A stretch of 64,000 bases of DNA from Eledone cirrhosa (taxonomy: Eukaryota): positions 30,752,001 to 30,816,000 of the forward strand of contig OZ024753.1 in NCBI GenBank assembly GCA_964016885.1, read 5' to 3'. Shown piece by piece: positions 7,057 through 54,200 of this stretch; the stretch's first letter is position 1, and every line of letters starts with the position of its first letter. Under the pieces are notes generated by a model. That model did not search any database, was not told the DNA's origin, and saw only the letters and a program-made list of their open reading frames with translations. Made by a program: the position numbers and the translations under genes.

Positions 7057-7098
7057 CATATATATATTCATATATATATATATATACACATATATATA

Positions 7099-7148
<50 letters not shown>

Positions 7149-7164
7149 TATATTCATATATATA

Positions 7165-7204
<40 letters not shown>

Positions 7205-7208
7205 TATA

Positions 7209-7248
<40 letters not shown>

Positions 7249-7288
7249 TATATTCATATATATATATATATATATACACATATATATA

Positions 7289-7336
<48 letters not shown>

Positions 7337-7340
7337 TATA

Positions 7341-7386
<46 letters not shown>

Positions 7387-7390
7387 TATA

Positions 7391-7432
<42 letters not shown>

Positions 7433-7541
7433 TATATATATATATATATATTCATATATATATATATATATATTCATATATATATATATATATATATTCA
7501 TATATATATATATATATATATTCATATATATATATATATTC

Positions 7542-7572
<31 letters not shown>

Positions 7573-7990
7573 TATATATATTCATATATATATATATTCA
7601 TATATATATATATTCATATATATATATATATATACACATATATATATTCATATATATATATATATATACACATATATATATTCATATATATATATATATA
7701 TACACATATATATATACATATATATATATTCATATATATATATTCATATATATATATATATATACACATATATATATATACATATATATATATTCATATA
7801 TATATATATATATACACATATATATATACATATATATATATTCATATATATATATATATACACATATATATATATTTATATATATATATATACACATATA
7901 TATATACATATATATATATTCATATATATATATATACACATATATATATACATATATATATATTCATATATATATATATATATATATATA
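7057..7990. repeat. ~930-bp (TA)n microsatellite with TTCA/CACA interruptions
   Basis: Direct reading; source of the 336-aa and 315-aa YI-rich ORFs. Confidence 0.97.
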
Positions 7991-8234
7991 TAAACAAATA
8001 ACGAAACGAAATTAAATTTCGTTTCGTTTGTAACTCACTTTTGTATGACTGACGCTTAAACAATTAAGTTAAAAATGTACATCCACATATGTAGATGTAC
8101 CGAGTTTTTCACTGGTCACTTTACTGTGAGTGTCCAGCTATTCTGTATGTAAACACACAGACAAACCGGTTTTTAGAGTCATACTGGTTTTTGAGGAAAC
8201 ACCTTTCCTCTATTCTCCAGAAAGCCAGACAAGG

Positions 8235-8279
8235 AATATTGGACTAGTTTCGATGTTGTTACATCTCATCAGCAATATT
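8235..8279 (-). ncRNA. Minimal type-I hammerhead ribozyme (copy 1)
   Basis: Exact reverse complement of 8766-8810. Confidence 0.88.
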
Positions 8280-8765
8280 TACCTATCTTCCGGCCTTTCT
8301 AGAGAATCGTAAAAGCACATATCGTTATATGCTTTTTCTATGAAAATTAGTAGTGGGCAGACTAATTTGCATAGAGCGTGAGTACGTACCGGTTCAGCGG
8401 AGATGATAAAAACAAATAACGAAACGAAATTTAATTTCGTTTCGTTTGTAACTCACTTTTGTATGACTGACGCTTAAACAATTAAGTTAAAAATGTACAT
8501 CCACATATGTATACTGAAATACTAGTATGCATATGAATATGTGGATGTACATTTTTAACTTAATTGTTTAAGCGTCAGTCATACAAAAGTGAGTTACAAA
8601 CGAAACGAAATTTAATTTTGTTTCGTTATTTGTTTTTATCGTCTCCGCTGAACCGGTACGTACTCACGCTCTATGCAAATTAGTCTGCCCACTACTAATT
8701 TTCATAGAAAAAGCATATAACGATATGTGCTTTTACGATTCTCTAGAAAGGCCGGAAGATAGGTA

Positions 8766-8810
8766 AATATTGCTGATGAGATGTAACAACATCGAAACTA
8801 GTCCAATATT
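8766..8810 (+). ncRNA. Minimal type-I hammerhead ribozyme (copy 2), predicted cut after GUC at 8803
   Basis: AATATTG-CTGATGA-GATGT(AACA)ACATC-GAAA-CTAG-TC-CAATATT: 7-bp stem I, full core, 5-bp stem II, palindromic ACTAGT stem III. Confidence 0.9.
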
Positions 8811-9053
8811 CCTTGTCTGGCTTTCTGGAGAATAGAGGAAAGGTGTTTCCTCAAAAACCAGTATGACTCTAAAAACCGGTTTGTCTGTGTGTTTACATAC
8901 AGAATAGCTGGACACTCACAGTAAAGTGACCAGTGAAAAACTCGGTACATCTACATATGTACACGTGTGTGTATTCATATGCATACTAGTATTTCAGTAT
9001 ACATATGTGGATGTACATTTTTAACTTAATTATATATATATATATGTTGGAGA

Positions 9054-14275: not shown

Positions 14276-16232
14276 AGTGTGTAGTCTACTTTCACAGTGT
14301 GTAGTCTACTTTCACAGTGTGTAGTCTACCTTCACAGTGTGTAGTCTACCTTCACAGTGTGTAGTCTACCTTCACAGTGTGTAGTCTACCTTCACAGTGT
14401 GTAGTCTACTTTCACAGTGTGTAGTCTACCTTCACAGTGTGTAGTCTACTTTCACAGTGTGTAGTCTACCTTCACAGTGTGTAGTCTACTTTCACAGTGT
14501 GTAGTCTACCTTCACAGTGTGTAGTCTACTTTCACAGTGTGTAGTCTACTTTCACAGTGTGTAGTCTACCTTCACAGTGTGTAGTCTACCTTCACAGTGT
14601 GTAGTCTACCTTCACAGTGTGTAGTCTACTTTCACAGTGTGTAGTCTACCTTCACAGTGTGTAGTCTACCTTCACAGTGTGTAGTCTACCTTCACAGTGT
14701 GTAGTCTACTTTCACAGTGTGTAGTCTACTTTCACAGTGTGTAGTCTACTTTCACAGTGTGTAGTCTACTTTCACAGTGTGTAGTCTACCTTCACAGTGT
14801 GTAGTCTACCTTCACAGTGTGTAGTCTACCTTCACAGTGTGTAGTCTACCTTCACAGTGTGTAGTCTACCTTCACAGTGTGTAGTCTACCTTCACAGTGT
14901 GTAGTCTACCTTCACAGTGTGTAGTCTACCTTCACAGTGTGTAGTCTACCTTCACAGTGTGTAGTCTACCTTCACAGTGTGTAGTCTACTTTCACAGTGT
15001 GTAGTCTACTTTCACAGTGTGTAGTCTACCTTCACAGTGTGTAGTCTACCTTCACAGTGTGTAGTCTACCTTCACAGTGTGTAGTCTACCTTCACAGTGT
15101 GTAGTCTACCTTCACAGTGTGTAGTCTACCTTCACAGTGTGTAGTCTACCTTCACAGTGTGTAGTCTACCTTCACAGTGTGTAGTCTACCTTCACAGTGT
15201 GTAGTCTACTTTCACAGTGTGTAGTCTACTTTCACAGTGTGTAGTCTACCTTCACAGTGTGTAGTCTACCTTCACAGTGTGTAGTCTACCTTCACAGTGT
15301 GTAGTCTACCTTCACAGTGTGTAGTCTACCTTCACAGTGTGTAGTCTACCTTCACAGTGTGTAGTCTACCTTCACAGTGTGTAGTCTACCTTCACAGTGT
15401 GTAGTCTACTTTCACAGTGTGTAGTCTACCTTCACAGTGTGTAGTCTACCTTCACAGTGTGTAGTCTACCTTCACAGTGTGTAGTCTACTTTCACAGTGT
15501 GTAGTCTACTTTCACAGTGTGTAGTCTACCTTCACAGTGTGTAGTCTACCTTCACAGTGTGTAGTCTACCTTCACAGTGTGTAGTCTACTTTCACAGTGT
15601 GTAGTCTACTTTCACAGTGTGTAGTCTACCTTCACAGTGTGTAGTCTACCTTCACAGTGTGTAGTCTACTTTCACAGTGTGTAGTCTACCTTCACAGTGT
15701 GTAGTCTACCTTCACAGTGTGTAGTCTACCTTCACAGTGTGTAGTCTACTTTCACAGTGTGTAGTCTACCTTCACAGTGTGTAGTCTACCTTCACAGTGT
15801 GTAGTCTACTTTCACAGTGTGTAGTCTACTTTCACAGTGTGTAGTCTACTTTCACAGTGTGTAGTCTACCTTCACAGTGTGTAGTCTACCTTCACAGTGT
15901 GTAGTCTACCTTCACAGTGTGTAGTCTACTTTCACAGTGTGTAGTCTACCTTCACAGTGTGTAGTCTACCTTCACAGTGTGTAGTCTACCTTCACAGTGT
16001 GTAGTCTACCTTCACAGTGTGTAGTCTACCTTCACAGTGTGTAGTCTACCTTCACAGTGTGTAGTCTACCTTCACAGTGTGTAGTCTACTTTCACAGTGT
16101 GTAGTCTACTTTCACAGTGTGTAGTCTACTTTCACAGTGTGTAGTCTACCTTCACAGTGTGTAGTCTACTTTCACAGTGTGTAGTCTACCTTCACAGTGT
16201 GTAGTCTACCTTCACAGTGTGTAGTCTACCTT
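14276..16232. repeat. 20-bp minisatellite GTAGTCTAC(C/T)TTCACAGTGT, ~98 copies
   Basis: Exact 20-bp register with only one variable position seen. Confidence 0.98.
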
Positions 16233-16340
16233 TACAGCATTCAGTCTACATCAACTACAACAACTTTATATAGCAGGGTGAAAAAAAAAAAAATTACAAG
16301 TTTTTCATATTATTTATTGATTATTATTGAACTAATGAAA

Positions 16341-18204: not shown

Positions 18205-19485
18205 CACTCACAGACAGACAGACTCACTCACAGACAGACTCACTCACAGACAGACTCACTCACAGACTGATTCACTCACAGACAGACTCACTCACAGACT
18301 GATTCACTCACAGACAGACTCACTCACAGACAGACTCACTCACAGACTGATTCACTCACAGACTGATTCACTCACAGACAGACTCACTCACAGACAGACT
18401 CACTCACAGACAGACTCACTCACAGACAGACTCACTCACAGACTGATTCACTCACAGACAGACTCACTCACAGACAGACTCACTCACAGACAGACTCACT
18501 CACAGACTGACTCACTCACAGACAGACTCACTCACAGACAGACTCACTCACAGACTGATTCACTCACAGACAGACTCACTCACAGACAGACTCACTCACA
18601 GACTGACTCACTCACAGACAGACTCACTCACAGACAGACTCACTCACAGACAGACTCACTCACAGACAGACTCACTCACAGACAGACTCACTCACAGACT
18701 GACTCACTCACAGACAGACTCACTCACAGACAGACTCACTCACAGACTCACTCACAGACTGATTCACTCACAGACAGACTCACTTACAGACAGACTCACT
18801 CACAGACTGATTCACTCACAGACTGATTCACTCACAGACAGACTCACTCACAGACTGATTCACTCACAGACAGACTCACTCACAGACAGACTCACTCACA
18901 GATAGACTCACTCACAGACAGACTCACTCACAGACAGACTCGCTCACAGACAGACTCGCTCACAGACAGACACTCACTCACAGACTGATTCACTCACAGA
19001 CTGATTCACTCACAGACAGACTCACTCACAGACTGATTCACTCACAGACAGACTCACTCACAGACTGATTCACTCACAGACAGACTCACTCACAGACAGA
19101 CTCACTCACAGACAGACTCACTCACAGACTGACTCACTCACAGACAGACTCACTCACAGACAGACTCACTCACAGACTGACTCACTCACAGACAGACTCA
19201 CTCACAGACTGACTCACTCACAGACTGACTCACTCACAGACTGATTCACTCACAGACTGATTCACTCACAGACTGATTCACTCACAGACAGACTCACTCA
19301 CAGACAGACTCACTCACAGACAGACTCACTCACAGACAGACTCACTCACAGACAGACTCGCTCACAGACAGACTCGCTCACAGACAGACTCACTCACAGA
19401 CAGACTCACTCACAGACAGACTCACTCACAGACAGACTCACTCACAGACAGACTCACTCACAGACAGACTCACTCACAGACAGAC
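18205..19485. repeat. 16-bp minisatellite CACTCACAGAC(A/T)GA(C/T)T
   Basis: Direct reading; grades into (CA)n on both sides. Confidence 0.95.
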
Positions 19486-19999: not shown

Positions 20000-21215
20000 C
20001 TTATAAATTATGATGTGTAAAGGTATATGGTAGATTAGGGATCTCAGTGGTGTGTTAATGAGGAAGGGAGTAACGCTGAAACTGAAGGGAAAGATGTTTG
20101 TTGCTTGCAGATGTGAGAAGTGACATGATTTATGGGAGTGAAACATAGGAAGTGATGAATGTAGAGCAAGAGAGAAGGCTGGAAAGAATGAAGGTGGTCC
20201 TGTGGATGAGTAGAGTATTGCTGAGAGATGTGAAGACAAATAATGAATTATAGCCAATAATGAGAATAGAACCAGTGATGAATGTTGTGAGAGGAAATGG
20301 AATGAGATGGTTGGGTCATGTGTTGAGGAAATGATGAAAGGGTCTGAATGAGAGAAGTGATGGGAATAGAACCAGTGATGAATGTTGTGAGAGGAAATGG
20401 AATGAGATGGTTGGGTCATGTGTTGAGGAAATGATGAAAGGGACTGAGTGAGAGAAGTGATGGGAATAGAACCAGTGATGAATGTTGTGAGAGGAAATGG
20501 AATGAGATGGTTGGGTCATGTGTTGAGGAAATGATGAAAGGGACTGAGTGAGAGAAGTGATGGGAATAGAACCAGTGATGAATGTTGTGAGAGGAAATGA
20601 ATGAGATGGTTGGGTCATGTGTTGAGGAAATGATGAAAGGGACTGAGTGAGAGAAGTGATGGGAATAGAACCAGTGATGAATGTTGTGAGAGGAAATGAA
20701 TGAGATGGTTGGGTCATGTGTTGAGGAAATGATGAAAGGGTCTGAATGAGAGAAGTGATGGGAATAGAACCAGTGATGAATGTTGTGAGAGGAAATGGAA
20801 TGAGATGGTTGGGTCATGTGTTGAGGAAATGATGAAAGGGTCTGAATGAGAGAAGTGATGGGAATAGAACCAGTGATGAATGTTGTGAGAGGAAATGAAT
20901 GAGATGGTTGGGTCATGTGTTGAGGAAATGATGAAAGGGACTGAGTGAGAGAAGTGATGGGAATAGAACCAGTGGTGAATGTTGTGAGAGGAAATGGAAT
21001 GAGATGGTTGGGTCATGTGTTGAGGAAATGATGAAAGGGTCTGAATGAGAGAAGTGATGGAAGTCATGTGGAATGAAGTAGAGGGATGGGAAGACCAAGA
21101 AAGACATAGCTAAAACTGATGGTAGAGGAAATGAAAACCAGAGGGTTGATGTGAGGGTGATGTAGACAATAGGGAAAAATGGAGAAACTTGTTGCCCTGT
21201 AAGGCTAACTCTTGC
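20000..21215 (+). mobile_element. Degraded RTE LINE fragment containing an internal tandem array
   Basis: DLSGVLMRKGVTLKLKGKMF..VRSDMIYGSET..RWLGHVLR..GRPRKT motifs occur in the expected order. Confidence 0.85.
20262..21062. repeat. 99-100-bp tandem repeat, ~8 copies
   Basis: Unit GAATAGAACCAGTGATGAATG...AGAAGTGATGG. Confidence 0.97.
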
Positions 21216-30633: not shown

Positions 30634-31527
30634 AGAGTACAGGGAGCTGAAATAATATCATTGGCCCTGAAAGGCAAAGGTAGACCTCATTCAGAGTACA
30701 GGGAGCTGAAATAATATCATTGGCCCTGAAAGGCAAAGGTAGACCTCATTCAGAGTACAGGGAGCTGAAATAATATCATTGGCCCTGAAAGGCAAAGGTA
30801 GACCTCATTCAGAGTACAGGGAGCTGAAATAATATCATTGGCCCTGAAAGGCAAAGGTAGACCTCATTCAGAGTACAGGGAGCTGAAATAATATCATTGG
30901 CCCTGAAAGGCAAAGGTAGACCTCATTCAGAGTACAGGGAGCTGAAATAATATCATTGGCCCTGAAAGGCAAAGGTAGACCTCATTCAGAGTACAGGGAG
31001 CTGAAATAATATCATTGGCCCTGAAAGGCAAAGGTAGACCTCATTCAGAGTACAGGGAGCTGAAATAATATCATTGGCCCTGAAAGGCAAAGGTAGACCT
31101 CATTCAGAGTACAGGGAGCTGAAATAATCATTGGCCCTGAAAGCCAAAGGTAGACCTCATTCAGAGTACAGGGAGCTGAAATAATCATTGGCCTTGAAAG
31201 CCAAAGGTAGACCTCATTCAGAGTACAGGGAGCTGAAATAATCATTGGCCTTGAAAGCCAAAGGTAGACCTCATTCAGAGTACAGGGAGCTGAAATAATC
31301 ATTGGCCTTGAAAGCCAAAGGTAGACCTCATTCAGAGTACAGGGAGCTGAAATAATCATTGGCCCTGAAAGCCAAAGGTAGACCTCATTCAGAGCACAGG
31401 GAGCTGAAATAATCATTGGCCTTGAAAGCCAAAGGTAGACCTCATTCAGAGTACAGGGAGCTGAAATAATCATTGGCCTTGAAAGCCAAAGGTAGACCTC
31501 ATTCAGAGTACAGAGAGCTGGAATAAT
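30634..31527. repeat. 59/57-bp minisatellite (8 x 59 bp, then 7 x 57 bp)
   Basis: AGAGTACAGGG unit starts at 30634, every 59 bp to 31106, then every 57 bp to 31505. Confidence 0.97.
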
Positions 31528-31555
31528 ATATATTTGAAAATTGTGAATCCAAATG

Positions 31556-32765: not shown

Positions 32766-32944
32766 ATATACTGCTCTGAAGCAGCATAGAGTGCTCAACA
32801 GGCATACCGCCTATGGATGCATCCTAGCAACCATACAACATATAAAATAAAATTAAATAAAAAAAATTTTTTGACACTACAAGTAAAGTCATTCTTTTCC
32901 TTTTTATCAAATATACCTGACTGTACCAAGGATCTCACACATTT

Positions 32945-33005
<61 letters not shown>

Positions 33006-44226: not shown

Positions 44227-45071
44227 ATATTCTATTCTATTCTATTCTAAGGCGGGTAAAATTCCCGAGATCCATGGACGAGTTCTCTCCAGCGGTCTCT
44301 GTCCCTCATTATCGTTGCCATGTCCTGCGTCTCCAACAGACCAGTGTCTGTCCTTAGGGCATCAACATACGTTAACCTTCCTCTTCTAGTGTGTCCATGT
44401 AGGGGCTCCCAAAGGAGCACTGAATGCAATGTCAACTCTGGATGTCGGTGAGCATGTCCAGCCAACCTCAGTCTCCTCTGTGTCACTTTTGAGCTGACTT
44501 TTGGGAGGCTCCCATACTGCTCTGAGTTTTTCATCCTCAGTGTATACTGATTAATGTTCAGAGCCATCCTCAGCATTCTCGTGTAGCACCCATCCACCAT
44601 CTGAGTGAGTTTCTTGGTCAGTGTCCAAGTCTCAGACCCGTACAGCAGCACAGACTCCACTACAGCAATGAAGAGGCGGATTTTCAGGTCTCTACAAAGG
44701 TCCGACTTCCACACCGATCTCAAGCTGTGGAACGCCGCCCAGGCTTTGCTCTTCCTCTCAACCACATCATCTTCCGTATTCCCAATCTTTGCTTCCAAAT
44801 ACAGGAAGCCCTCAACCAATTCTAGCGGCTTCCCGCCTACATTAGTGATCCCCTCTGGCTTCTCAACATTCTCTACCAGATATTTTGTTTTAGTCTCATT
44901 CATTCTCAGCCCCACACTCATTGACACAGTCTCAACCTCCCGCATCAAATCCTCTGCCTCCTTCACTGTATTTGTCACCAAAACTATGTCGTCAGCAAAT
45001 TCAGCATTTGATACCTTTTTCGCCCTAACTCTCCTGCTCTGAGCCGGTGCTACAGTAAAGCCAGAGTCCTG
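44227..45071 (-). mobile_element. 5'-truncated RTE-clade LINE with an open reverse-transcriptase C-terminal ORF
   Basis: The frame extends upstream to ..[12 protein letters not shown] (catalytic FADD), then LLYGSETW and RRLRLAGH, stop at 44247, (GAATA)n tail. Confidence 0.95.
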
Positions 45072-45258
45072 GTTTTTCTCTCTATATATATACTCCTACA
45101 CACACACATACACACACACATATGTATATATATTTACATACATATATGTGCATATATATATACACTCATACATACACACACACACATATATATATATACA
45201 CTCAGACACATATACATTCATACACACACACACATATATATATATAAATATGTGTGTC

Positions 45259-53524: not shown

Positions 53525-54200
53525 ACACAGTCATATGTTTACCTTCATATTTACCTGTAAACATACATAGTTATGTTTACTTTTATATTTATCTGTAAAC
53601 ACACAGTCTTATATTTACCTTTAAACTTACCTGTAAACACACACAGTCATATATTTACCTTTGAACTTACCTGTAAACACAGTCATATATTTACCTTTAA
53701 ACTTACCTGTAAACACAGTCATATATTTACCTTTAAACTTACCTGTAAACACACACAGTCATATGTTTATCTTTAAACTTACCTGTAAACACACACAGTC
53801 ATATGTTTATCTTTAAACTTACCTGTAAACACACACAGTCATATATTTACCTTTAAACTTACCTGTAAACACACAGTCATATATTTACCTTTAAACTTAC
53901 CTGTAAACACACAGTCATATATTTACCTTTAAACTTACCTGTAAACACAGTCATATATTTACCTTTAAACTTACCTGTAAACACAGTCATATATTTACCT
54001 TTAAACTTACCTGTAAACACACAGTCATATGTTTACCTTTAAACTTACCTGTAAACACACAGTCATATGTTTACCTTTAAACTTACCTGTAAACACACAG
54101 TCATGTTTACCTTTAAACTTACCTGTAAACACACAGTCATATATTTACCTCGAAACTCACCTGTAAACACGCAGTCATATATTTACCTTTAAACTTACAT
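53525..54200. repeat. 36-40-bp minisatellite ACACAGTCATATATTTACCTTTAAACTTACCTGTAA(AC)n, ~17-18 copies
   Basis: Direct reading; unit length varies through the CA run. Confidence 0.96.

Follow-up and report, generated by a model that had tools for sequence, protein, structure and literature searches.

How does a short, non-coding repeat with a hammerhead ribozyme come to lie head to head with another copy of itself inside a (TA)n tract? Positions 7992-9031 of the window, the 64,000-nt stretch of Eledone cirrhosa DNA that was analysed, raise this question. The literature consulted treats both the movement of animal retrozymes and the role of the hammerhead in the cycle of Penelope-like elements (PLEs) as open. 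Our results pointed to a two-armed insertion of a hammerhead-bearing non-LTR retrozyme, with the RT/GIY-YIG protein of a resident PLE as the likely agent of its reverse transcription into (TA)n, and we give this reading a probability of about 75%.

Anatomy of the insert and its hammerhead

The window insert is a minus-strand arm and a plus-strand arm placed head to head (Table 1), and the period of its repeat defines a unit, U, of 466 nt at 8537-9002. The inverted arms 8085-8508 and 8537-8960 described in the first-pass annotation were recovered with 424 nt each and three mismatches (8404, 8426 and 8432), as were the 29-nt direct repeat at 8537 and 9003, which gives the period of 466, and the left-arm period of 418. 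The 28-nt "spacer" placed between the arms proved to be no foreign sequence but a continuation of the left arm, and the arms therefore meet at 8537-8539. The junction of the 48-nt deletion in arm A had one exact match in the 3.0-Gb genome and is thus private to the window copy. A meaningful ORF was absent, as had been claimed, the longest stop-to-stop frame in a trimer of the unit being 60 aa and the longest from an ATG 50 aa.

Table 1. Features of the insert and its flanks, in positions of the window
Feature	Position	Strand	Basis or remark
Left flank: a complex (TA)n microsatellite, the likely target	7058..7991	.	TRF period 2, 467.5 copies
Arm A: unit 436-466, followed by 1-424 and, past the 48-nt deletion, by sequence up to site A (unit ~100-103), the "long" 3' end, which forms the left boundary	7992..8539	-	sense on minus
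Junction of the 48-nt deletion, between short direct repeats	8085..8093	-	private to window copy
Arm A hammerhead (type I), with cleavage predicted after 8242	8219..8290	-	Rfam HH9, E 1.2e-7; cut inferred by symmetry with 8803
Former "spacer", arm A unit 436-466	8509..8539	-	
Arm B: one full 466-nt unit (8537-9002) and 29 nt, as far as site B (unit 29), the "short" 3' end	8537..9031	+	
Segment between site B and site A (~70-nt "tail"), with a 29-nt hairpin at 8599-8627	8566..8639	+	
Motif taken to be octamer-like, possible promoter element	8673..8680	+	kept in sister families ~67% identical
Canonical type I hammerhead of arm B, predicted cut after 8803 (unit 267)	8755..8826	+	Rfam HH9; helix I 8767-8772/8804-8809, helix II 8780-8793, helix III 8797-8802
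Short (TA)n right flank	9032..9046	.	

The Rfam HH9 model matched both arms at 38.9 bits (E 1.2e-7), under its gathering score of 52. The fold consists of a 6-bp helix I with an internal loop and a closing stem, a 5-bp helix II and a 2-bp palindromic helix III, and the GUC triplet of the plus-strand hammerhead ends at 8803. The first-pass annotation had seen an intact minimal hammerhead with a palindromic stem III on each strand; the hammerhead on both arms and the palindromic helix III stood, but the class did not, since the motif is canonical type I by the definitions of the two classes in the available text of PMC4209133. Among nine sequences from sister families, 7 of the 16 pairs changed on both sides with the core kept, and 95.8% of the cells were paired, against 32-51% in slid controls, percentages that are not readable as a probability for nine sequences that are kin. 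Within the 466-nt family, one helix II pair was swapped in about 110 of 381 units, and the cut base was C or U in the main subfamilies. The unit was also far better folded than its shuffles (z -10). The hammerhead of the unit is predicted from these features to be an active ribozyme. Cleavage in vitro was reported for only 1 of 9 predicted Xenopus retrozymes in the accessible part of 10.64898/2026.07.22.740005.

Family spread and insertion ends

With the unit as query, 205 matches came from 40 of 535 candidates; almost all were full units of 98-100% identity, and many stood in tandem. Exact-pattern counts over the genome gave 9,305 hammerheads of the 466-nt family and 23,648 hammerhead copies for the wider group. 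Insertion ends in which site A adjoins TA numbered at least 2,045, and control matches were absent for all three patterns. The family group accounts for about 23,000 ribozyme motifs, plus palindromes and satellites in the genome. Tandem arrays of the unit reached 31 units, and subfamilies of about 99, 96, 94 and 89% identity coexisted with sister families that were ~67% identical and alignable over the whole unit (for example L105:8079-9901, L108:2890-3465, L218 and L224). In one sister family, the place taken in the window unit by a degenerate TA-rich hairpin contained an internal (TA)n run of variable length, suggestive of a captured stretch of target.

The unit carries a type I hammerhead in each repeat of a short tandem array, has low GC and neither coding capacity nor LTRs, and is dispersed as mobile copies from dimers to multimers. 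Judged by its sequence, it is a young, non-coding, non-LTR retrozyme family. The near-identical copies and tandem arrays bear out the first-pass annotation, which had proposed a young, non-autonomous, retrozyme-like family without an ORF; it had also suggested a BLAST-type search for tandem copies and varied permutation points, and both were found. Non-LTR retrozymes are known, including from mussel, and PLEs have been proposed as their carriers, with units of 170-400 nt in the available text of PMC7229834 and of 51-972 nt in that of 10.64898/2026.07.22.740005. As far as these two texts describe them, animal non-LTR retrozymes share with the unit non-coding tandem repeats, a canonical type I hammerhead per unit, a GC content of about 35%, dispersed dimers to multimers, a highly paired RNA and coexistence with PLEs. 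In contrast, inverted arms, a tail, fixed ends or TA targeting are not described there and are the rule here; in the main text of the preprint, so far as available, "tail" and "initiation" do not occur and "inverted" occurs in one reference only. A literature search judged from listings returned no paper that describes the 466-nt family or maps retrozyme ends, although the supplements of PMC7229834 and of the preprint, Dfam or Repbase may hold it.

Twenty rows of sequencing runs, from 16 studies, contained part of the window stretch, and no run registered as RNA was among those listed. Among the four runs examined, relatives of the unit were present in X4 and X8, which carry other organism codes, and next to nothing was found in X23. 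Run X4 held the unit as a single looped 495-nt contig, which fits a circle or a tandem array equally; run X21, from the same sample, had next to none of its words.

The ends of the copies were mapped at 34 loci chosen only for containing a full unit. Of 59 sense 3' ends, 58 fell at site A (unit 97-105; n=32) or at site B (unit 27-36; n=26), about 70 nt (68-74 nt) apart, and one lay elsewhere. The sense 3' ends of two-armed inserts pointed outward, and site A was paired with site B in all 21 two-armed inserts that had both canonical ends; the remaining 2 of 23 comprised one that runs off the stretch and one with an odd end. A further 59 loci were taken by their A end, in order along one contig. 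Forty-one of these had an inverted arm and 7 more a short site-B stub, and 35 of the 39 visible outer ends lay at unit 27-35, that is, at site B. Arms longer than one unit were common at both sites (32/58 A arms, 23/41 B arms). The inner 5' ends were variable, and in 30 of 41 inserts, counted by eye, the two coordinates of the inner junction lay over 40 nt apart. Locus L146, whose insert matched that of L145 and was treated as a duplicate, and arms running off the fetched stretches were dropped. Site-matched 3' ends were also seen in a few sister-family copies.

The flanks were mostly (TA)n, and target duplications of 11-14 nt were readable at L033, L046 and L061, three of the eight loci viewed, with a duplication of about 50 nt at L156. 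At G000:C1:5738093-5752746, an arm of 30.7 units with short local periodicities faces an arm of 0.7 units, which reads as a satellite growing from one insertion. The octamer-like motif of Table 1 lies 33 nt after site A and may be a promoter element or the position of a relic start codon. Newt satellite 2 has an snRNA-type promoter.

Proposed priming events and the RNA template

In the available text of Craig 2021, PLE insertions show partial tandems, an inverted truncated copy, a one-sided tail and a (TA)n bias. The same anatomy was found here, with a partial tandem and an inverted 5'-truncated copy (41 of the 59 loci, and the 7 stubs) and a tail on one end only. Since the repeat has these features, we take it to stem from two priming events, in which a resident PLE protein used each strand and each site once. 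In vitro, according to the accessible text of PMC11167929, a Poseidon protein cuts both strands of AT-rich DNA and extends them, with synthesis initiated at two internal RNA sites that delimit the tail seen in the genome. By analogous steps, the RT/GIY-YIG protein would nick both target strands with a short stagger, and cDNA synthesis would start from each nick at an internal RNA position, site A for one and site B for the other. On a continuous template, both cDNAs would pass back over the ribozyme site, and their truncated ends would be joined into a head-to-head palindrome. Some arrays may then grow further by unequal exchange at the DNA level. Against the PLE reading, the tail of 68-74 nt is longer than the 30-40 nt given for PLE tails in the available text of Craig 2021.

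Linear monomers cut by the ribozyme should pile up 5' ends at unit 268. In the earlier sets, which belonged to no pre-set test, 9 of 89 5' ends lay near the cut, with 4 expected, and this prompted a pre-set test; there, 3 of 99 5' ends were within 10 nt of the cut, with 4.5 expected. Because over half of the arms exceed one unit, the template was continuous across the cut site, and in this respect the circular or multimeric RNA suggested by the first-pass annotation was upheld. Two further 5'-end pile-ups, at whole-unit lengths and around site B (post hoc p 0.004 and 0.001), failed to repeat in the other loci (3/36 vs 2.4; 7/53 vs 8.1) and were rejected.

The arrays do not separate a circle from a linear multimer, since uniform and periodic ones both occur. 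Among uniform two-armed arrays, one had 8 units with no differences (L055) and another 20 units with no substitutions or deletions at aligned positions. Other arrays carried locus-private variants with local periods of 2-8 units, and many were heterogeneous; such periods are expected from later unequal exchange or from multimeric templates, whereas a monomer circle by itself would not produce them. We consider the chances somewhat better than even that the template is usually a monomer circle, which would be made by hammerhead cleavage of array transcripts and ligation and would be copied by rolling.

It is rather improbable, but worth weighing, that twin PLE priming took place on an uncleaved linear multimer transcribed from a parent array, with the ribozyme serving another step (5' end formation or turnover) and the long arrays coming from their parents or from DNA-level expansion. 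The periodic heterogeneity of long arrays agrees with this, variants shared between the two arms of an insert leaned slightly towards the 3' register (22 vs 9 loci, p=0.076), and the available text of PMC11167929 reports that the Poseidon ribozyme is not needed for insertion in vitro and that RNA left unprocessed serves as the main substrate. A linear template, however, would require an equally clean parent for the 20-unit two-armed insert, and no heterogeneous pair of adjacent units, out of 101, reappeared at a second locus, a weak negative with ~125 of more than 2,000 loci sampled.

Carrying the preferred reading further, we suggest tentatively, and with odds somewhat against it, that both target strands are primed by a dimer of the PLE protein, which uses two sites on a single circle made by the ribozyme and travels round it, so that as many as 20 identical units are laid down at once as a head-to-head palindrome. 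If so, inverted and tail structures of PLEs would generally arise in this way, the retention of a hammerhead by PLEs would be explained, and animal retrozymes would found satellite arrays by the same route. The family leaves a countable footprint of two start sites, one per arm, and its young, near-identical copies share one genome with apparently full-length candidate enzymes. The footprint turns the questions of movement and of the hammerhead into one assay, a circle against a linear multimer with purified protein.

The first-pass annotation had proposed a strand switch for the palindrome, taken here as one within a single cDNA. From a cDNA that changed strand or folded back on itself, one would expect symmetric junctions, with the second arm at most as long as the first, and neither holds. 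The window junction is nearly symmetric (31-nt offset) and 11 of the 41 junctions were within 40 nt of symmetry by eye, with ~7 expected, but the other 30 were asymmetric, either arm may be far longer (31 units vs 0.7), and the second arm ends at its own fixed outward site in 21 of 21 inserts. Such an origin, largely refuted already by the pairing of site A with site B, is highly improbable, and two priming events fit the inserts, because each arm ends at its own site, the junctions are asymmetric and the arm lengths are unequal.

Candidate partner enzymes and other window features

The endonuclease-bearing PLEs (Neptune/Nematis-type, and the Poseidon PAc of PMC11167929), so far as the available text describes them, resemble the unit in their partial tandems, 5'-truncated inverted copy, one-sided tail, two internal start sites and AT-rich or (TA)n targets. 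The hammerhead lies near the start sites in PLEs and also in the unit, although the unit's start sites are ~230 and ~300 nt after the ribozyme cut, whereas those of PLEs are within about 150 nt. The unit further differs from PLEs in having no ORF, a tail of about 70 nt and a canonical ribozyme. Naiad/Chlamys PLEs, including the non-autonomous MRC1, are unlike it in lacking hammerheads, and non-autonomous Chlamys PLEs resemble their autonomous partners at the 3' end, both according to the accessible text of Craig 2021; no such match was seen for the unit.

The genome contained 10,596 GIY-YIG candidates. A Pfam scan of ORFs gave five with an RT match and four with a GIY-YIG match, and four ORFs had a Cys-rich linker resembling Neptune/Nematis, a class assigned by the linker motif. 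An apparently full-length pLTR-ORF-pLTR element with RT and GIY-YIG is located at L095:2779-9000 (G000:C1, ~145.87 Mb), and its pLTR hammerhead is a variant in which U3/A8 replace C3/G8 in every copy seen. Three resident RT+GIY-YIG families ended in (TA)n at two sites ~62, 39 and 50 nt apart on opposite arms. The link of the repeat to a PLE protein, argued mainly from homology and co-occurrence, is likely. Among 50 GIY-YIG loci of the 10,596 candidates, BLAST and a repeat-group profile found no pLTR homologous to the unit, only separate repeat insertions; in Xenopus, by comparison, 21 of 57 retrozyme families match PLE entries in the available text of 10.64898/2026.07.22.740005. The ends of the unit were also compared with the short end of the L095 family. 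Four of 28 uncorrected comparisons gave p 0.008-0.24, and the ends lay out of register by a base or two. This mixed resemblance was set aside.

Alternatively, the copies might be 5'-truncated insertions of an autonomous PLE, with the unit as its pLTR, as the PLE-like insertion anatomy and the occurrence of hammerheads in pLTRs would allow. But no RT plus GIY-YIG ORF between pLTRs was found in the unit, it runs head to tail for up to 31 copies without an ORF, its ribozyme is not minimal and the 50 loci offered no pLTR homology, so that we regard this as slightly less credible still than a folded cDNA. An assembly fold-back, which the first-pass annotation had named as a possible refutation, is barely conceivable: no record in the runs examined spanned the whole stretch, but the arms differ by 3 substitutions and the 48-nt deletion, and dozens of loci, each with its own junction, show the same arrangement of two ends.

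Elsewhere in the window, positions 32856-32954 match the 3' end of the L097 PLE family in diverged form (77%), and a (TA)n run comes next. A 282-aa frame at 44250-45095 on the minus strand reads, as an impression from its translation, like a LINE reverse transcriptase fragment. The miRNA matches of the Rfam scan were under their thresholds and were discarded as hairpin noise. Homogeneous minisatellites were located at 14276-16237 (period 20), 18206-19485 (16), 20260-21060 (100), 30634-31529 (59) and 53525-54198 (38).
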